A stretch of DNA of 64,000 nucleotides, taken from the sequence record PV467748.1; one strand, written 5' to 3'. The translations under genes were made by a program, and so were the position numbers. Below, in pieces: positions 1,332 to 51,612 of the stretch; the stretch's first letter is position 1, and every line of letters starts with the position of its first letter. The DNA comes from a phage. Below the pieces are notes generated by a model. The model was not told where the DNA came from and did no database searches. It worked only from the letters and a program-made list of their open reading frames with translations.

Positions 1332-1622
1332 TTAGCACATTGCCGAAGAGGAGATCCAAGCACCAACTGTAACGACGCCATTTTCAACTTCACCACCGTT
1401 GTTTTCAATTTCATCTTTAAACCACTGGGAGCATTCATAACCAACAGGGTAGTATGTACGTCCTGAGCCATAATCACCTGTTCCGAATTGAATACCGTAC
1501 TTATCGGCAATAGCTTCACATTTGGATTCGATGGTATCCACTTTATTCAGAAGAGCATAGATAGCCTTTTCTGCAGATTTCTCGTCGTTGTGTTCTGGGA
1601 TTTCGATTTCAATTTTATTCAT
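1332..1622 (-). CDS. small paralog family member A (C-terminus ...GAWISSSAMC)
   Basis: ORF track; ATGA overlap with upstream gene stop; ADKYG..GDYG..W.SSS.C motifs. Confidence 0.6.
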   Translation of the reverse strand: MNKIEIEIPEHNDEKSAEKAIYALLNKVDTIESKCEAIADKYGIQFGTGDYGSGRTYYPVGYECSQWFKDEIENNGGEVENGVVTVGAWISSSAMC

Positions 1623-1969
1623 GATTTACATTCCTTAATAAAGGTTTCAAGGTCATTACGTTTGGTTTGTTTTACATACTCATTATAATTAGCCATCTCT
1701 AAAGCATATCTCTTTTTACGCGGCTTGTTTATCCTATTGGTGTTGATAATATCCAAGACCAGAGGGATAAAGTATCCTATTAAAGCTGGAACCCAAATCC
1801 AGGCAAGGTTCAATTCAAATAGGTTTTGTGTCGTATCATTAACGACTCCACCAGCAATTAGTCCAACAAATCCGGCAATCGTACCAGTGACAAGTCCAGC
1901 GAATAAAGAAATAGCGATATCATAATCTGCTAATGCGTAACCAGGGTCGGTTTTACTAGGCTTATACAT
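1619..1969 (-). CDS. small membrane protein (two predicted TM helices)
   Basis: ORF track 1619..2005 trimmed to ATG (MYKPSK...) preceded by AGAGG RBS; hydrophobic stretches. Confidence 0.5.
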   Translation of the reverse strand: MYKPSKTDPGYALADYDIAISLFAGLVTGTIAGFVGLIAGGVVNDTTQNLFELNLAWIWVPALIGYFIPLVLDIINTNRINKPRKKRYALEMANYNEYVKQTKRNDLETFIKECKS

Positions 1970-2498
1970 TTTGAACCTCTTTAGCGTATTCACGGCATTC
2001 AGCAATAAAACGATTAAGCTTCCGTTGTTGTTTACGACTTTCTAATGTGTACTCAGTAGTTAAGATACCAAGCTCGGCTTTATCATAATTTTTAATATCA
2101 GTGTAAGATGGGCGACGGTCGACCATTCCAAATACATCACCATTTTCTAAAGCTACATAGCATACTAAATGGTAATCATCGTCTGCTATATTAAGAAGCA
2201 CACAATCAGCGCTCTCGTTTAAAGAATATACTGAATAACGTAGTCCGGCGAATTCCACTCGTTGAATAGCCAGATTTACGTCAATAATTTCCAAAGCATC
2301 TTCAAAAGAAAGGTCTTCAGCTAAAGCAAAAATAAAAGGTAATTTGGTAGTATCGCCACGGCTAGATGTTCTGCTTAAGAAATCGTTTGAATAGCCTAGG
2401 TCTTGGCGAATTCTATAAAGAACTGAATTGGTTTCATGGGAAAGACCGCTATTTTTAAACCAATCAATATTAGATATCAAATTATCATATAAGCTCAT
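1962..2498 (-). CDS. hypothetical protein
   Basis: ORF track; ATG preceded by GGAGGAGAGGAG RBS. Confidence 0.55.
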   Translation of the reverse strand: MSLYDNLISNIDWFKNSGLSHETNSVLYRIRQDLGYSNDFLSRTSSRGDTTKLPFIFALAEDLSFEDALEIIDVNLAIQRVEFAGLRYSVYSLNESADCVLLNIADDDYHLVCYVALENGDVFGMVDRRPSYTDIKNYDKAELGILTTEYTLESRKQQRKLNRFIAECREYAKEVQNV

Positions 2499-2546
2499 AA
2501 TATTCTCCTCTCCTCCAAATAGGGAGACCGAAGTCTCCCGGTAATA

Positions 2547-3140
2547 TTACTTAAGTGAATTAATGTAGTCTTCGATATCAGCAGAAGTCGTATCCATTCC
2601 AACTTGTGGGCCTTTAAACGTTTCTACACGAAGCAGGGTATCTTCAATATCAATCTTAGTCAGTGCAGCGATTTCAACAACATCATCGGCAGTAGCAATA
2701 CCAAGGGCAGCCATATTACGAGTTTCACGGATGTACTCGAGCTTAACGGCTAGTTCCTGACGGGAGTCATCAAGTTCCTTGACCTTCAGTTTAATTTCAT
2801 TACGCATTTCGATATAATCATCGGCTTTCTTACGAAGTTGAGTAGCCGTACGACGGTAAAGGAGGCCAAGTTTAGCATGCACCTGAACATCAGAGCCTTC
2901 TTTAATCAGTTTACGAATTTCGCGTTCTTTAGAACTAGCCAGTTGGTCTTTTTCGTTAGCAAGTTCACGAATACGTTTTTCTTCATTCACCGACTTAACA
3001 TGAGCAGTCTGGAGTTCAGTAATTTTATCAATCAGGGTAGAAGCAGCTTTAGTATACTGGTCTTCGATTGACAGGTTCTGAGTCATTGCGGTACCCAGTT
3101 TAGAACGGATGAACTCAACAATTTTCTTTAAAGTATTCAT
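2547..3140 (-). CDS. coiled-coil protein (PspA-like architecture, speculative)
   Basis: ORF track 2547..3215 trimmed to ATG (MNTLKK...) with GAAGGA RBS; long heptad-like helical sequence. Confidence 0.5.
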
Positions 3141-3218
3141 AGTATTTCCTTCAGTTGGTTGGTATTTTGTAATCCATGAGGACATTATACCCTGTCCTCT
3201 GAGGGGTGTAAACATTTT

Positions 3219-3617
3219 TTATTTCATTTTTGCTAGGCAGATTTCATTGGCTTCCCATTGAGCTTGCTTAATAATAGCTTTGGATACAGGAACCCTTTGG
3301 CCATAAGTTTTTGACGTTGAGAGAACAATGTATTTGTTTGCTTCATTATGCCAGCCCCGTGATTTTTCGCCATGGGTGCCTTTAACTACAGCTGACACCT
3401 CAACAGAGCAACCACCATCAGAAATCTTGGTTTCGACAATCCATTCATTTCTCTCAGCAGCTTCAAGTTCCAATCTAGTTTTTTCTTCATACATCGCGGC
3501 CCAATCAGTTTTTGCCAAGTTGAAAGTAAGAGCTTTCTCTAATTCTTTGGCATATTTTTGTTGTTCAGGTGTTAATGAATTATACAACTCTTGCATTTCT
3601 TTATCTTCGATATTCAT
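3219..3617 (-). CDS. hypothetical protein
   Basis: ORF track; ATG with GAGGAG RBS; early-type promoter just upstream. Confidence 0.6.
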   Translation of the reverse strand: MNIEDKEMQELYNSLTPEQQKYAKELEKALTFNLAKTDWAAMYEEKTRLELEAAERNEWIVETKISDGGCSVEVSAVVKGTHGEKSRGWHNEANKYIVLSTSKTYGQRVPVSKAIIKQAQWEANEICLAKMK

Positions 3618-3642
3618 TATGTTCTCCTCAAATTATGGGCTC

Positions 3643-3672
3643 ATAATATCTTAATCATGGGCCCATGTAAAC
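3643..3672 (-). promoter_or_regulatory. T4 early-type promoter (-35 GTTTAC, 18 nt, -10 TATTAT)
   Basis: Read on minus strand: GTTTACATGGGCCCATGATTAAGATATTAT upstream of the 3219..3617 gene; coordinates approximate. Confidence 0.5.
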
Positions 3673-3675
3673 GTT

Positions 3676-3942
3676 TTATTTCATATTATTGAAATAATCT
3701 TCCGCATCAAAATCATTATCATGATAAACTTTGGTAGACAATTTAACATAACCTTCGGCAGCGAACATATTAACCACAACCTTTACAGTATACCATTGTC
3801 CATCATCTTCATTACCCATTACTGCATAGGTTTCATACACCGGGTGTTCAGGACCGACAACCTTAATATCGTTAACTGTGGCACCAAATTCTTCCGGAAC
3901 ACATTTCATAAAGAAATTAAACACTTCACCATAATTATCCAT
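3676..3942 (-). CDS. hypothetical protein
   Basis: ORF track 3676..3957 begins with GTG inside the RBS; trimmed to ATG (MDNYGE...) preceded by GAAGGAG. Confidence 0.55.
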   Translation of the reverse strand: MDNYGEVFNFFMKCVPEEFGATVNDIKVVGPEHPVYETYAVMGNEDDGQWYTVKVVVNMFAAEGYVKLSTKVYHDNDFDAEDYFNNMK

Positions 3943-3961
3943 TTTACTCTCCTTCACTCTG

Positions 3962-4006
3962 TTGTTTTGATAGGTCTATAGTATCATGTTCTACGAAAGA
4001 GTAAAC
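3962..4006 (-). promoter_or_regulatory. conserved early promoter/leader element, copy 1 (GTTTAC-N17-TACTAT-AGACCTATCAAAACA)
   Basis: Near-identical block recurs at about 7192, 7536 and 42304, each directly upstream of a minus-strand gene start. Confidence 0.55.
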
Positions 4007-4028
4007 ATCTTTTTAAACCTTTTAGAAA

Positions 4029-4057
4029 CAAAAAAGGCCCAACCTTTCGGAAGGGCC
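4029..4057 (-). terminator. rho-independent terminator (hairpin GGCCCTTCCGAAAGGTTGGGCC + T-run on minus strand)
   Basis: Forward strand reads AAAAAAGGCCCAACCTTTCGGAAGGGCC; sits just downstream of the 4063..4617 gene. Confidence 0.6.
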
Positions 4058-4062
4058 TAGAA

Positions 4063-4617
4063 TCAGTTCTTGTAGAACCGGAATGGGTTTATGTGGAAGG
4101 CTAACATAGCCTTAGGGATTTTACGAGACAAAAGGCTCTTAAGCTTCCAACCACAGTACACGCGAAGGTAAAAGGTAATCCCACCAACCTTAAGATATGG
4201 AACTGAAGCAAATACACCCCAGGCGTCGTCATTCCACATCCATAACCACCCGTGATGAGCTTTATCAGGAGAACCGGATTCCACGTCGGGATTACCTCGA
4301 TAATGGAATTCCGAGCTACAATCACGACCGAGTTTATGGTAAGCAAAGTTATAAGCTTTATTTCGCCATAGCCAAGCTACTCTCTGAAGATAAACGCCGC
4401 CCGGCATTTTCCTGATGTTAGCCCAACGTTTAATATGACCTTTATCACCGTCAATTGGATTATCGTATGTCATCATCCAATCAAAGCCGTACGGTAATTT
4501 ACCTGTCTTTTTATTGTGGAAAGGAACCACAAATGGTGCAAGGATAACAGCCAGAACCATAGAGATAAAATCTAGTGGGACCAACAGAACCCAACTCAAA
4601 TATTTTAAAAGTTTCAT
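4063..4617 (-). CDS. membrane-anchored protein, Trp-rich (N-terminal TM helix)
   Basis: ORF track 4063..4722 overlaps the upstream gene; trimmed to first ATG after it (MKLLKYLSWVLLVPLDF...). Confidence 0.5.
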   Translation of the reverse strand: MKLLKYLSWVLLVPLDFISMVLAVILAPFVVPFHNKKTGKLPYGFDWMMTYDNPIDGDKGHIKRWANIRKMPGGVYLQRVAWLWRNKAYNFAYHKLGRDCSSEFHYRGNPDVESGSPDKAHHGWLWMWNDDAWGVFASVPYLKVGGITFYLRVYCGWKLKSLLSRKIPKAMLAFHINPFRFYKN

Positions 4618-4636
4618 ATATTTCTCTAAGTTAACC

Positions 4637-4660
4637 AAAAAGCCCCAGATGGGGCTTTCG
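4637..4660 (-). terminator. terminator-like hairpin (AGCCCCATCTGGGGCT + T-run on minus strand)
   Basis: Forward AAAAAGCCCCAGATGGGGCTTT immediately after the stop of the 4661..5125 gene. Confidence 0.45.
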
Positions 4661-5125
4661 TTATTTGATTTGTTTAGCAGACCAGATACGGTCTTTGATG
4701 ATTTTCTGAATATCTTCAACATACTCTAAGTCGTGAGCATGCGGATTATCTTTGAAGCTATGTGCTCGTGCCAGTTTCTGGCCTTCTGTTTTGATTACTA
4801 AAAGCTCTTTAAGAATTGCTTCATACTTAGAAATAATTCCTTTGGCGATATTTTTTTCTTGAGCGGCTTTAGGGTCCGCTTTTGTCGCAGGTGCTTTACC
4901 TGTAGCTTTCTGGAACAATTCACCTGATGCAGCTAGGCTTTTAAAAACTCGGCTAACAGTATTAGCATTAGTAAAACCTTCGGCTTTAAAATCTTTAATA
5001 AAACGGAAACGTTCTTCATCAGAGGCGTCTTTGTAAGAATATTTACCTGCTTGAATTGCTGCAATAGCAGCGGCTTTTACATCTGAACTAGATTGTTCGG
5101 TCAAAAATTCATTGTAAGTTTTCAT
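4661..5125 (-). CDS. internal head protein with capsid-targeting sequence (MKTYNEFLTE|Q), Lys/Ala-rich
   Basis: N-terminus matches the T4 IPI/IPII/IPIII capsid-targeting sequence MKTYQEFIAE with an L-x-E cleavage motif; basic composition like T4 IPIII. Confidence 0.7.
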   Translation of the reverse strand: MKTYNEFLTEQSSSDVKAAAIAAIQAGKYSYKDASDEERFRFIKDFKAEGFTNANTVSRVFKSLAASGELFQKATGKAPATKADPKAAQEKNIAKGIISKYEAILKELLVIKTEGQKLARAHSFKDNPHAHDLEYVEDIQKIIKDRIWSAKQIK

Positions 5126-5165
5126 TATTATTTCCTAAGTTAATTAACTTATCTATTTATTATGC

Positions 5166-5194
5166 CAAAAAGCCCCAACCTTTCGGAAGGGGCT
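5166..5194 (-). terminator. rho-independent terminator (variant of the GGCCC..GGGCC hairpin) downstream of the tRNA cluster
   Basis: Forward AAAAAGCCCCAACCTTTCGGAAGGGGCT; T-run on minus strand. Confidence 0.55.
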
Positions 5195-5244
5195 ATGCCT
5201 TGCGGCAACCTTGTCGGGGTTCCACCTGCTAAGGCAAGTGTTTG

Positions 5245-5576
5245 TACGAAACGCCGGGATTCGAACCCGGTTATTAAGTAGTTGACGCTACTCAATATTT
5301 TTAAAAGGCCATATCTCGACCATATCCGAACGTTCCGTCAAAAACGCTACTCGGCTTACGGCAAAGATATTTCCTCGAATCGATAATTCTGTGCGCCGTT
5401 TCTGCTGTGATGTAAGGGGACGTTAACAGATCGTAAAGATTTGTTAATGCCAGTCCTTACTCAGGGAACATCAGTCCGACGACTTACCGGTAGCGACCCG
5501 GTTTCTTGTTTGTTGCGCCGGTGAATGCTGGTAATCAGTCTTCATACGACGGCTTGACTATATAATAGTCTTCATT
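5245..5576 (-). ncRNA. untranslated region with tRNA-like 3' element; possible small stable RNAs (T4 species 1/2-like) or degenerate tRNA
   Basis: No ORF over about 330 nt; minus strand carries a perfect T-arm CCGGGTTCGAATCCCGG near 5251..5270 with pairable acceptor strands CGGAACG/CGTTTCG, but I could not fold a canonical D or anticodon arm. Confidence 0.3.
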
Positions 5577-11197: not shown

Positions 11198-11209
11198 AGT
11201 GCCTCCTTA

Positions 11210-11217
11210 TAAATATT
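11210..11217 (+). promoter_or_regulatory. T4 late promoter TATAAATA for gene 53
   Basis: Exact TATAAATA about 26 nt upstream of the gene 53 ATG. Confidence 0.6.
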
Positions 11218-11222
11218 AATAT

Positions 11223-11230
11223 TATTTATA
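11223..11230 (-). promoter_or_regulatory. T4 late promoter TATAAATA (minus strand) for gene 4
   Basis: Forward TATTTATA about 26 nt upstream of the gene 4 ATG; divergent with the gene 53 promoter. Confidence 0.55.
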
Positions 11231-26707: not shown

Positions 26708-28297
26708 ATGATTAACAAATTGGAACTTAGTGAGTTACCATTTGTTGACGGCGTACCTGATGCTCCTCAAAAGCGTATCCAATGGATACGCGAGGGTGAT
26801 TGTATGTCTGCAGCAAAAACAAAATACGGCAATGAAGGTAATTTGAACGCTGCTGCTTTAGGAGTTCAGAAAAACGTTGAAGCTCTTGATGCGAATGATT
26901 TGAAAACCGCAGATAAAGTTAACGAACTGGTAGAAAACGTTAATAATATCAATGATGCCTTAGAAATGGCTACGGATATTTCCGTCATCCAACAAATTGA
27001 GAAAAACCGTGTTGATATCGTAGAGCTTAAGAGAGTAGAAGGCGAAACCACTACTGGGCTAAACAATTTAACCATAAATTTCGACCACCTAAAAGAAGAC
27101 GTTGGTTACCATGACCCTTTACAAGATGGCCCATATTTAACTGTACGTGAAAATATTGTTCTTCTTAAAACCGAAATAGGTCATTATGAAAACCAGGATA
27201 TAAATGGTAATCCGTTGCCTCCTGGTGAAACCAGTGAAGCCACCGGTATGAAACGTCGCATCATTGATAATACCACTCAATTGGTCGACCATCGTCTTCG
27301 CATTGATACCCTTGAAAGGAATTATGAAGATTCTGACGTCGGGCAACTAGGTATTAAATTAAATGAAATTCGTGCTGAACTTGGCCCTCATTCTGATACT
27401 GTAGGTAAACAACAGGCTTATACCCGAATTTCTGTATTAGAAACGGCTGCAATTAATTTCAATACATCTATCGACGAAATTAAGACTAATATTGATTTCT
27501 CCGGTATGCCTATAAAGGACCGAGTAACTACTTTAGAAAACAAAACTCTTACCCTAGAAAATTCAGTCAACGTTGATTTAAAACCTCGTGTAACATCAAT
27601 TGAAACCCAAATAGGTTCTGAATCAACTCCTACTTCTATTAATGGACGTTTAAGCGGTCTTCGTACTGATGTAAATGACCTTAAAACCATAGTGGGTGTT
27701 AGTTCAAGTGATGGCTTACGTTTCCAAGTTACTGATATCAACCGCCGTTTAGGTAGTGAAGTATCTCCGGCAGCTGGGACCGTTAATAAGCGTTTAAATG
27801 ACGTTATTATCCAAGCAAACCAATCTACTTCATCTATCCAGGATATTCAAGTAGAAATTGGAAATAACCAATCCGGTATTAAGGGTACTTTACTTAAACT
27901 CACCAATAAGGTTGACGGGACAAACCCTAACGGTACTACTGTAGAAGAACGTGGTCTTATTAATGCGGTTACTTCTTTAGAAACCCAGATGTTAGGTAAG
28001 TTGAATGATGCCCCTTCCGATGGTAAGCTTTATGCTCGTCGTAATGCTACGTGGACCGAAGTTCCTAACGTTTCTACTGAAATAGGGACCGTTAAAGCTG
28101 ATTTAGTTGTTACCGATGGTAATGTGGCAGCTTTAACTTCTAGAGTTACTACGGCAGAAGATAAAATCACTGCATTAGAAACTGAACTTGCTAAACGTCC
28201 GCCAGTGGCTCCTGTTGCTGATGGACTTCCGTATGTTCTGGTTGATAATGCGTGGGTGCTATTGTCAGATTTTGTGACTTTAAACCCATCACCATAA
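26708..28297 (+). CDS. wac: fibritin (whisker) Wac
   Basis: Long segmented coiled coil, synteny between 12 and 13. Confidence 0.8.
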   Translation: MINKLELSELPFVDGVPDAPQKRIQWIREGDCMSAAKTKYGNEGNLNAAALGVQKNVEALDANDLKTADKVNELVENVNNINDALEMATDISVIQQIEKNRVDIVELKRVEGETTTGLNNLTINFDHLKEDVGYHDPLQDGPYLTVRENIVLLKTEIGHYENQDINGNPLPPGETSEATGMKRRIIDNTTQLVDHRLRIDTLERNYEDSDVGQLGIKLNEIRAELGPHSDTVGKQQAYTRISVLETAAINFNTSIDEIKTNIDFSGMPIKDRVTTLENKTLTLENSVNVDLKPRVTSIETQIGSESTPTSINGRLSGLRTDVNDLKTIVGVSSSDGLRFQVTDINRRLGSEVSPAAGTVNKRLNDVIIQANQSTSSIQDIQVEIGNNQSGIKGTLLKLTNKVDGTNPNGTTVEERGLINAVTSLETQMLGKLNDAPSDGKLYARRNATWTEVPNVSTEIGTVKADLVVTDGNVAALTSRVTTAEDKITALETELAKRPPVAPVADGLPYVLVDNAWVLLSDFVTLNPSP

Positions 28298-28300
28298 TAA

Positions 28301-28319
28301 AGGGCTTCGGCCCTTTTTT
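28301..28319 (+). terminator. rho-independent terminator GGGCTTCGGCCC + TTTTTT
   Basis: Stem with TTCG tetraloop and T-run directly after the wac stop. Confidence 0.7.
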
Positions 28320-28321
28320 GC

Positions 28322-28329
28322 TATAAATA
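28322..28329 (+). promoter_or_regulatory. T4 late promoter TATAAATA for gene 13
   Basis: Exact TATAAATA about 22 nt upstream of the gene 13 ATG. Confidence 0.6.
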
Positions 28330-28350: not shown

Positions 28351-29286
28351 ATGGCAAGTGAATCATATAACCCTAAGCAACTCAAGGACGCAATCCTGCG
28401 CCGCCTGGGTGCACCGATTACGAATATTGAAGTAACTACAGACCAAGTATACGATTGCATCCAGCGCGCCCTGGAGCTCTACGGTGAGTATCATTATAAC
28501 GGCTATAACAAAGGTTATCAGGCTTTTTATATAGGTCATGATGATGAAGAAAAATTCCGTAACGGCGTATTTGACCTTAAAGGTCGTAATATATTTGCAG
28601 TGACACAAATTTTAAGAACCAATGTGGGTTCTTTAACATCTATGGACGGTCAAGCGACTTATCCATGGTTTACTGATTTTGTATTGGGCCTAGCTGGTAT
28701 TAATGGTGGTCTTGGAACTTCTTGTAATAGCTTTGGACCTAATGCCTTCGGTGCTGACCTCGGTTATTTTACCCAACTGATGCAATATCGTTCTATGATG
28801 CAGGACCTTTTGGTTCCATTGCCTGATTATTGGTATAACGATGCCACCGAACAATTGAAGGTAATGGGCAACTTTGTTAAAGGCGACTTTATTGTAATTG
28901 AAGTTTATACCCGTTCATTTAATGGCGTTGATTCCATGGTTGGGAATACAGCAGGATATGGATATGCTTCTGGTGGCTGTGACGAAAATGAATGGAGCCC
29001 TGGGGCTATTTGGGATAACCCGGCTCGTCGTATTTCAGGTATGAGGGCAGGTGAAGACCTTGGTTTGCAAGATGGTTCATATAATAACCGTTGGGTCAAA
29101 GATTATGCCACGGCATTGGTTAAAGAAGTCAATGGTAATATTTTGGCCAAACACCAAGGCATGCAACTTGCGGGTGGAACCACTGTAGATGGTATTCGAT
29201 TGATTGAAGAAGCCCGTTTAGAAAAAGAACGTCTTCGCGAAGAATTAGATTTACTCGACCCACCAACACCTATTTTAATTGGATAA
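28351..29286 (+). CDS. 13: neck protein gp13
   Basis: Size 311 aa (T4 309) and synteny. Confidence 0.85.
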
Positions 29287-29288
29287 TT

Positions 29289-29933
29289 ATGAACTATAAT
29301 AAGATTTACAAATCTTTAATAAATAAGGGCCTCGAAAGAGGTCTAAATAAAAAGAAGGTAGGGTTTTATACAGAGAAGCATCATATTGTCCCTAAATCCA
29401 TGGGTGGTAGTGAAGACAAATCCAATTTTGTCCTTTTAACCGCTAGAGAACATTTTGTAGCTCATCAATTATTGTATAAAATACACAAAAACCGTTCTAT
29501 GGCCCATGCTATGATTAATATGTGTGCTGATAGCACAGGTAATAGGGTTAATTCTAAGTTATTAGATTGGCACCGTAAAGCTAAGGCTAAGGCCCAAAGT
29601 GAGATGGTTTCAGGTGAAAACCATCCTATGTATAACAAGAAACATAAAAAAGAAACATTAGAAAAAATGAGATTGGCCAAATTAGGCGTCCCATGGACTG
29701 AAGAAGTTAAGGAATCTAGAAGAGAAGAATTACTTAAAACCTCTGAACACGCTAGGACTTTCATCGACTATAAATCTGGCGGAGAAAATTCAGCCGCAAA
29801 GAAAATATGTATAGAAGGTATAGTATTTGATTATATGGAAGAAGCGGTTCCTTGGTGTAATATATCAAGAAGAACTCTTTTAAATAGAATCAAATCTTCA
29901 GACCCTAAATGGAGGGATTGGAATTATGTCTAA
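29289..29933 (+). CDS. HNH-family homing endonuclease
   Basis: HNH core [31 protein letters not shown]; basic C-terminal region; absent from this position in T4. Confidence 0.8.
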
Positions 29934-30702
29934 CACTTTTGATTCAAGCTTATTTGCTAGGCTTGAGGATGGTTCAGGTTACGTTAATACAAATAAAAGC
30001 GAAATTCTCAATCCGTTCGTCAACTTTTATCGCCATGAGAATACTCAAACATTGGCCGATGCTTTAGTTGCAGAATCTATCCAAATGAGGGGAATTCCTT
30101 TATATTATATCCCTAGACAGTATGTTAAGCCTGACCAATTGTTCGGCGAAGACCTCCAAAACAAGTTTACAGTGGCCTGGAAATTTGCAGGGTATTTGGA
30201 TTCCTTTGAAGGTTATTCCGGTGACAATACTTATTTCAGTAAGTTCGGTATGATGGTTAATGATGAAGTAACAATCACAATTAACCCTAACCTTTTTAAA
30301 CATCAATGCAATGGCACTGAACCTGTTTCAGGCGATTTGATTTATTTCCCAATGGACAACAGCCTATTCGAAATTAACTGGGTACAACCTTACGACCCAT
30401 TCTATCAAGTAGGAGCTAACGTCCAGCGTCGCATCACTGCTACCAAGTTCATTTACAATGGTGAAGAACTTCGTCCTGAATTACAGAGAAATGAAGGTAT
30501 TAATATTCCTGAGTTTAGTGAGCTTGATTTAATGCCCGTTAAGAATATCGACGGATTGGCTGATATCTCCGACATTCAATACGAAGAGGTCAATGAGATT
30601 AATGCTGAAGCGGCTGAATTCGTACATCCTTATGTTGTAATTAATGGACGAGGAGAGGATGCTCCTCCTACAGCATTTGATGATGCTTTTTTAGATGATT
30701 AA
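29926..30702 (+). CDS. 14: neck protein gp14
   Basis: Size 258 aa (T4 256) and synteny. Confidence 0.8.

Positions 30703-31604: not shown

Positions 31605-31608
<4 letters not shown>
30742..31608 (+). CDS. 15: tail sheath stabiliser / tail completion protein gp15
   Basis: ORF track starts with TTG at 30739; ATG at 30742 gives [13 protein letters not shown]..., matching T4 gp15 as recalled. Confidence 0.9.
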
Positions 31609-33918
<2,310 letters not shown>

Positions 33919-47965: not shown

Positions 47966-47987
47966 TATAAATATAACTATATTTATA
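47966..47987. promoter_or_regulatory. divergent late promoters: TATAAATA (+) for uvsW and TATAAATA (-) for inh
   Basis: Forward TATAAATA near 47966 and forward TATTTATA near 47980. Confidence 0.5.
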
Positions 47988-51600: not shown

Positions 51601-51612
51601 TATTTATAAATA
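51601..51612. promoter_or_regulatory. overlapping divergent late promoters (TATTTATAAATA) for gene 26 (-) and gene 51 (+)
   Basis: Forward TATTTATAAATA contains TATAAATA on both strands. Confidence 0.55.

Follow-up and report, generated by a model that had tools for sequence, protein, structure and literature searches.

Results

Gene organization at the 13/14 junction

The window analyzed here is a 64,000-nucleotide stretch of phage DNA (record PV467748.1). It belongs to Dhakavirus (JS98-like), and its nearest records from gene 13 to gene 14 are vB_EcoM_FB (97.9%) and vB_EcoM_ESCO10 (94.7%), hereafter FB and ESCO10. Between the neck genes 13 and 14, and on the same strand, both the ORF list and the raw sequence place a 214-aa ORF (Table 1), as a first-pass annotation of this DNA had reported; further along, the product of gene 15 matched the T4-gp15_tss profile.

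Table 1. Features in and around the 13/14 junction of the window (positions are those of the window).
Feature	Position	Strand	Basis or remark
Terminator-like hairpin after wac	28299..28316	+	7-bp stem, 4 G-C pairs, then T run; consensus scan
Putative T4-type late promoter TATAAATA	28322..28329	+	22 nt upstream of gene 13 ATG; pattern search
Gene 13, neck protein, head-tail adaptor	28351..29286	+	phrog_211 6.7e-41 ('head-tail adaptor Ad2'); gp13 in JS98 and FB annotation
Probable HNH homing endonuclease gene, free-standing	29289..29933	+	phrog_655 'homing endonuclease' 7.4e-49; 214 aa
HNH catalytic motif, aa 29-59 (E29, H31, H32, N46, H55, H59)	29373..29465	+	invariant columns
NUMOD3 DNA-binding motif (predicted), aa 104-128	29598..29672	+	Pfam PF07460, 29.9 bits vs cut-off 20.4
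I-TevI-type helix-turn-helix tail (putative), aa 164-213	29778..29927	+	PF20987 and 1i3j matches
Rebuilt gene 14 initiation region	29911..29928	+	GGAGGG 29911-29916, ATG 29926-29928; read from sequence, function inferred
Gene 14, neck protein	29926..30702	+	Pfam T4_neck-protein 1.8e-103
Foreign gene 14 5' block (putative co-conversion tract, probable immune allele)	29926..30198	+	sequence comparison

The same annotation had put the ATG of the ORF 3 nt past the gene 13 stop and its own stop over the gene 14 start. Both statements held. The gene 13 TAA occupies 29284-29286 and is followed by a 2-nt spacer, TT, so that the ATG begins three positions after the last stop base, while the TAA of the ORF (29931-29933) and the gene 14 ATG form an 8-nt overlap, ATGTCTAA. 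On the left side, all genomes compared were identical up to ...ATTGGATAATT-ATG, indicating that the ATG of the ORF lies exactly where the gene 14 ATG stands in an empty site. On the right side, the last codons of the ORF (K-W-R-D-W-N-Y-V) spell the GGAGGG...ATG used by gene 14, which is one codon longer in the window than without the insert (MSNTF at the start vs MATF). The gp13 and gp14 ORFs are both full length beside the insert, and the inserted gene is thus intergenic, not an intron or intein. Because its last codons provide a new Shine-Dalgarno sequence and ATG for gene 14, the essential neck operon stays intact. The GC content of the insert is 34-35% compared to 39-42% in the flanks.

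In T4, a 1-nt spacer is all that separates genes 13 and 14, and none of the 15 T4 homing endonuclease genes is listed at this position (Table 1 of PMC2988022), in agreement with the first-pass annotation, which placed no T4 gene here.

Transcription and translation signals

A pattern search found a single late promoter motif between wac and gene 17, the TATAAATA that lies upstream of gene 13 and past the terminator-like hairpin, and we infer that the endonuclease mRNA originates there. The assignment of this motif as a promoter is putative; TATAAATA matched 16 times in the window, against 7.7 matches expected. No late promoter motif was found by this search inside or just upstream of the ORF, and a consensus scan found no terminator in or next to it. 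Most simply, the endonuclease gene would lack a promoter and ride on the late 13-14 message, as mobE does on that of nrdA.

An RNA structure that hides the ribosome site has precedents in I-TevI and Aeh1 mobE. We considered such a structure for the window and rejected it, since the folds at both starts were no better than those of shuffled sequences (z = +0.37 and -0.62). Elsewhere in the window, at 11208-11230, 47966-47987, and 51601-51612, we observed copies of TATAAATA on opposite strands, 4-22 nt apart, in divergent or overlapping arrangement.

The ORF encodes a predicted HNH head, a NUMOD3 motif and an I-TevI-type tail

To describe the protein, we aligned it with 59 homologues from a collection of 5.8 billion proteins. 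The columns E29, H31, H32, P35, G39, N46, H55, H59, and L62 were invariant across these 60 sequences. The residues of the HNH catalytic set are among them and all are present, indicating that the set is intact; the canonical HNH motif of the first-pass annotation was thus found at aa 29-59, and a loss of the catalytic His/Asn/His residues, for which the alignment was also inspected, was not seen. The Pfam HNH profile (PF01844) matched aa 28-50 at 20.2 bits (E 6.9e-4), just under its cut-off of 21.4, and the motif aligned residue for residue with the HNH of the group II intron maturase 6me0. Among the PHROGs, phrog_655 (7.4e-49) covers aa 1-169, while phrog_314 is matched by the C-terminal half only.

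The C-terminal region had been described as basic, and its pI is indeed 9.1 (aa 101-214; 9.7 for the whole protein), although it can be described more precisely as a NUMOD3 motif followed by an I-TevI-type tail. For this tail, PF20987 (I-TevI_DNA-bd) gave 23.5 bits over aa 164-213, under the cut-off of 27, and the match by sequence to PDB 1i3j, the DNA-binding domain of I-TevI, had an E value of 0.044. With Foldseek, 1i3j_A was the top match (probability 1.00, E 3.8e-3). The AlphaFold2 model had a pLDDT of 85.7, with a core strand-strand-helix (E29-32, E47-50, H52-66) at pLDDT >95; beyond this core the model shows long helices and then a C-terminal strand-strand-helix-turn-helix unit.

Over the first ~100 residues, identity is 51-57% to three relatives, which are inserted between the members of three different conserved gene pairs: the RB3/T4-type MobE at nrdA/nrdB; an endonuclease of Jiaodavirus, flanked by adjacent baseplate wedge genes; and one of a Proteus phage, flanked by two ORFs annotated as helicases (a split UvsW-type gene). 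Taken further, the loci of relatives include nrdA/nrdB, gp6/gp7, uvsW, and primase. No paralogue of the gene was found elsewhere in the window. As judged from these profile, alignment, and model matches, the protein is modular, combining a MobE-like head with an I-TevI-like tail.

At the DNA level, the first 201 nt of the gene (29289-29489) are ~75% identical to endonuclease genes located between baseplate wedge genes in Klebsiella Jiaodavirus phages (LilPanda, L010, positions 1501-1701), with no DNA match there past these 201 nt. That the DNA match is confined to the first 201 nt is consistent with a module exchange near codon 67-100.

The insert is sporadic among Dhakavirus relatives

We used megablast to compare the region from gene 13 to gene 14 with 50,697 phage records. 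There were 112 matching records, 52 of them at the Dhakavirus level (at least 80% identity). Only two of these 52, FB and ESCO10, contain the HNH insert, and they are also the only records among the 112 that cover it. Among the 40 records listed, all but FB, ESCO10, and MX01 have a span of 1709-1712 nt rather than 2352 nt, with genes 13 and 14 adjacent; the insert-free records listed include JS98, JS10, Bp7, WG01, QL01, IME08, and PSD2002, and the empty sites of PSD2002 and JS98 were read directly. Universal presence in the lineage, which would sit poorly with a mobile gene, was therefore not what we observed. An identical protein was present on six metagenome or read-archive contigs, and the order gene 13, endonuclease gene, gene 14 was seen in all five for which gene order was shown. 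Across the genomes compared and these six contigs, which represent several diverged backbones, the protein is at least 99% identical.

Our literature searches found no description of an HNH gene at 13/14. The database records name the protein variously: it is a 'hypothetical protein' in FB and a 'baseplate hub subunit and tail lysozyme' in ESCO10 (L002, OM386655.1). Within 1501-5349 of the latter, gp13 is labelled 'hypothetical protein' and gp14 'baseplate wedge subunit', and the terminase subunits of this record are labelled 'DNA end protector' and 'tail completion'. The ESCO10 product names are thus mismatched to their genes and are unreliable in this interval.

Because the gene is close to terminase genes 16 and 17 (31605-33915), two genes upstream of them, and HNH genes beside terminase genes are a described class (PMC3592412), we asked whether its product could be a terminase-associated packaging helper of the kind found in HK97-like cos phages. 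This seems very improbable. The gene is absent from about 96% of the Dhakavirus records and from T4, indicating that it is not a required packaging factor. Furthermore, the long, predicted sequence-reading DNA-binding tail is typical of homing enzymes, and the relatives are found at many unrelated loci, as listed above.

The insert and the 5' end of gene 14 are near-identical on diverged backbones

Comparison of the window with ESCO10 revealed 7 mismatches in 912 positions over 29289-30200, compared to 189 in 2342 in the flanks, which consist of gp13, distal gp14, and gp15 (Fisher p = 6.5e-20). Relative to insert-free PSD2002, the pattern was the opposite: 60 of 266 positions differed in the first ~270 nt of gene 14 and 68 of 2346 in the flanks (p = 2.7e-28). 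This part of gene 14 is thus 22% diverged from insert-free alleles. One contig (L014), with 96.3% identity overall, has a single mismatch in 29215-30197, and in three others (L016-L018) the mismatches stop at 29214-29253. Altogether, at least five distinguishable backbones (the window included) that are 1-8% different elsewhere carry near-identical copies of the insert and of the initial ~270 nt of gene 14. This near-identity indicates that a unit from 29289 to ~30198 moved recently among several Dhakavirus backbones.

The last ~40-75 nt of gene 13 are identical in carriers and empty sites and constitute a left homology arm. The ends of the tract lie where homology to the recipient resumes: 35-75 nt into gene 13 on the left and, on the right, where the diverged stretch of gene 14 stops. 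We read the combined pattern of insert and block, a population signature, as the trace that homing with one-sided co-conversion would leave.

To look for a donor of the gene 14 5' block, we ran blastn against all phage records; no match exceeded 78%. In direct comparison, the block was 79% identical to Dhakavirus and had 70% nucleotide identity to Gaprivervirus SP18, with which it has in common the residues ARLEDG and PRQ.VKPD and the extra N-terminal residue. Its source is judged to be an unsampled lineage related to Dhakavirus and Gaprivervirus.

The first 92 codons of gene 14 contain 34 synonymous and 13 non-synonymous changes plus the one extra codon, compared to 7 synonymous changes and 1 non-synonymous change in the remaining 165 codons. 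Such a distribution raises the question of whether the gene 14 allele itself was swept through the population by ordinary recombination, with the HNH gene as a passive or dead hitch-hiker. The variant gp14 N-terminus (13 aa changes and an extra residue) would then be advantageous, for instance in escape from host defence or in fit to a partner. The 13 non-synonymous codons among the 47 changed ones would suit this explanation, as would the unsampled donor, whose best database match is 78%, and the free recombination of T4-like phages, since gp13 and wac are visibly mosaic here. However, the gene 14 block never occurs without the endonuclease gene in the records searched, and the catalytic residues of the endonuclease are intact. 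Seg-type carriers of the same junction, described below, bear on this question as well.

A second alternative is that the gene is a decaying or inactive remnant, kept because precise deletion is rare and because the gene 14 start depends on the 3' end of the insert. Many endonuclease genes of the T4 family are defunct, such as I-TevIII in T4 (PMC2790892), and removal of the ORF would take the present Shine-Dalgarno sequence and start context of gene 14 with it. Against this, the ORF is full length with every invariant residue of the family, both domains are confidently modelled, and the protein identity of at least 99% over several diverged backbones speaks for recent spread rather than long vertical decay. 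(The 8 variable sites among the copies of the endonuclease gene are too few for a test of purifying selection.) We consider a remnant improbable, slightly more so than a sweep of gene 14, and favor a homing endonuclease that is active or was so until very recently.

Mosaicism was also observed outside this unit. Within gene 13, a patch at 28884-29003 is 95-100% identical to JS98 and 85-90% identical to FB and PSD2002, whereas in the rest of gene 13 this relationship is reversed, which suggests a separate recombination event in the patch. The fibritin gene wac (26708-28297) is highly mosaic: for ESCO10 the identity is 45-80% along most of the gene, only the distal part aligns in MX01, JS98, and PSD2002, and large gaps are needed near 28147.

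Seg-type endonucleases occupy the same junction

In another Dhakavirus, MX01, a different endonuclease of 208 aa is located at exactly the same point between genes 13 and 14. Homologues of the MX01 protein (phrog_314) lie between 13 and 14 in Mosigvirus, Gaprivervirus (SP18), and Krischvirus (G5211); the Mosigvirus carriers, which include moskry and RPN187, make up 13 of 154 records. For the N-terminal domain of these Seg-type occupants (MX01 ORF161, moskry gp190, SP18 'segC', and G5211_00151), Pfam, NCBIfam, and PDB profiles gave no direct match, and the GIY-YIG identity was established through homology of the domain to SegH, to proteins annotated as GIY-YIG, and to a T4 match in the region annotated as gene 69. 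The 13/14 site of Dhakavirus can thus be empty (JS98), Seg-type (MX01), or HNH-type (FB, ESCO10, and the window).

We compared each Seg-type carrier with an empty relative: moskry with mar005P1 in Mosigvirus, G5211 with RB49 in Krischvirus, and MX01 with PSD2002 in Dhakavirus. In each pair, the 3' end of gene 13 was largely unchanged and substitutions were concentrated at the start of gene 14. For moskry, 37 of the 42 gene 14 mismatches fell within the first 111 nt; for G5211, about 47 of 67 fell within the first 117 nt; and MX01 had 7 mismatches within the first 27 nt. The same 5' divergence of gene 14 therefore accompanies an unrelated endonuclease in all three genera, which points to the endonucleases, and not selection on gp14, as its cause and makes a sweep of the gene 14 allele an unlikely account of the window. 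From the position of these substitutions, the likely target is the 5' end of gene 14 or the junction itself. Taken together, the comparisons identify the 13/14 junction as an apparent recurrent homing site for two nuclease classes in at least four genera. Different endonuclease classes are known to converge on one target, as with mobE and hef at nrdB and seg and mob genes at nrdD/nrdG (PMC2988022).

The N-termini of gp14 were also compared across genera (window 29926-30030, L008, and L009). Carriers of different genera share residues that insert-free relatives lack: SP18 has FARLEDGTGY and G5211 has FARLENGSGY, whereas insert-free Dhakavirus has FAKLENNTGY and the Krischvirus RB49 has FARLESQKDY. 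These shared residues could reflect either common ancestry of the co-converted block or convergent immunity of the target site.

The Seg-type occupant of MX01 has the same geometry of a rebuilt gene 14 start, AAGGAG...ATG. In both HNH and Seg-type occupants (window 29900-29928; L003 3030-3054), the conserved C-terminal K-W-x-x-W-x-Y-V codons spell the Shine-Dalgarno-like GGAGG or AGGAG together with the gene 14 ATG, such that a motif of the I-TevI-type tail doubles as the presumed gene 14 initiation region. In the SP18 record (L008, GQ981382.1; 1811-1913), gene 14 is annotated ~34 codons too short; its real ATG at 1811 overlaps the stop of the Seg-type gene as ATGCGTAA, an 8-nt geometry like that of ATGTCTAA.

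Similarity between the HNH and Seg-type tails

Given that two unrelated nucleases occupy one site, we considered the possibility that the HNH and Seg-type enzymes at 13/14 share a site-specific DNA-binding tail, one module having been re-armed with a different nuclease head. Residues 1-100 have no similarity to the Seg-type occupants, and aa 101-214 are 30-36% identical to them. The window protein itself was rejected as a Seg-type GIY-YIG enzyme, since its N-terminal head is unrelated and only its C-terminal half matches phrog_314. When aa 100-214 were searched against sequenced phages, the non-self matches listed were mostly 13/14 occupants, including all of those above the first exception, and the Seg-type 13/14 tails outscored the tails of 120 HNH relatives. 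A word-indexed protein search with the C-terminal half alone gave no match. An exhaustive HMMER search of 1.84 billion representatives, on the other hand, found equally close or closer tails at unrelated loci, belonging to GIY-YIG enzymes beside ribonucleotide reductase genes (P0212) or beside a Laminin_G-like gene (P0121), and HNH-linked tails (P0139) were only about 3 bits weaker in the HMMER scan. Close tails at unrelated loci weaken the case for a specific common origin of the 13/14 tails, and 35-45% identity over about 50 residues is too little to infer target specificity from.

Modular exchange of heads and tails is a known theme among phage endonucleases (PMC10448857; PMC3943268). A shared, re-armed tail at 13/14 is a tentative idea that we think rather doubtful. 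If true, two nuclease classes would compete for one homing site within one genus, and the junction would be a natural head-swap experiment in which one head can stand in for another while the tail determines where homing occurs.

Discussion

At a probability of roughly 80%, we take the ORF for a free-standing HNH homing endonuclease gene of the T4 Mob type that is active or was so until very recently. The first-pass annotation had likewise taken it for a free-standing homing endonuclease, and this reading is supported by the sporadic occurrence of the gene, the retention of its catalytic residues, and the near-identity of the insert and ~270 nt of gene 14 across backbones.

We propose that the gene would be transcribed late, from TATAAATA upstream of gene 13 and without a promoter of its own, and translated through what was originally the initiation region of gene 14, right where gene 13 ends. 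When an insert-free Dhakavirus infects the same cell, the NUMOD3 motif and helix-turn-helix tail would bind its uninterrupted junction or the start of its gene 14, and the HNH head would nick or cut nearby. One-strand nicking has been reported for MobE and MobA. In the recombination-dependent repair that follows, the carrier genome would be the template from which the endonuclease gene is copied along with the 5' block of gene 14 next to it. The carrier itself would be immune because the insert splits the site and because the 5' end of its gene 14 is heavily substituted.

The closest known system may be the T4-type MobE. The RB3 protein is 51% identical to the window protein over aa 1-97 (E 1.4e-29), and identity to T4-type MobE over aa 1-177 is 39.5%. 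Like the window gene, mobE is free-standing, shares the orientation of the two conserved genes that flank it, lacks its own promoter, and is sporadic among relatives. The mobE gene has been shown to be promoterless, and its product nicks the 5' region of nrdB, the next gene downstream, in an HNH-dependent manner (PMC2790892). Crosses with MobE showed co-conversion and placed the recombination point inside the first 189 nt of nrdB (Wilson & Edgell 2009, PMC2790892). A co-conversion signature in the 5' end of the downstream gene is thus common to both, in the first 189 nt of nrdB for MobE and in the first ~270 nt of gene 14 for the window. There are also differences. MobE belongs to an early/middle nucleotide-metabolism operon, whereas the window gene is in a late structural operon; no significant match extends beyond about aa 177, and the window protein ends in a putative I-TevI-type helix-turn-helix; and no internal terminator was detected in the window gene.

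The Seg-type enzymes at 13/14 resemble the window gene in insertion point, orientation, size (208-214 aa), and the overlap of their stop with a rebuilt gene 14 start, but their N-terminal nuclease is unrelated to HNH. I-HmuI of the Bacillus phage SPO1 (PDB 1u3e) has a similar layout of nuclease head, extended NUMOD-type linkers, and a C-terminal helix-turn-helix for reading a long site (PMC3943268). I-HmuI, an HNH nicking enzyme, is intron-encoded, whereas the window protein is not, and the head of the window protein falls in the Mob subgroup. The whole-chain structural match to 1u3e was not significant (Foldseek rank 24, E 4). Finally, according to Sandegren et al. (2005), as related in PMC2988022, segH replaces mobC and hef replaces mobE in T-even phages. 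As far as that account goes, these cases are alike in that one intergenic site is either empty or holds either of two unrelated endonucleases; they concern another locus, while the Dhakavirus case lies in a late structural operon.

With this gene, the Mob-type family appears to gain a member at a site that is empty in T4, and the population footprint of recent homing is, by the comparisons made here, unusually clean. Correction of the database annotation follows directly, both for FB, where the protein is 'hypothetical', and for ESCO10, where it is misnamed. Among T4-like phages, localised gene exchange and marker exclusion are driven in large part by free-standing homing endonucleases, and the window would add a well-defined natural case of homing in a late structural operon. 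Here the mobile unit, which seems to comprise the endonuclease gene and ~270 nt of an essential neck gene, can be read from population data. For phage-therapy cocktails that combine Dhakavirus and Mosigvirus isolates, the presence of such genes may predict which neck-region alleles win in co-infection.
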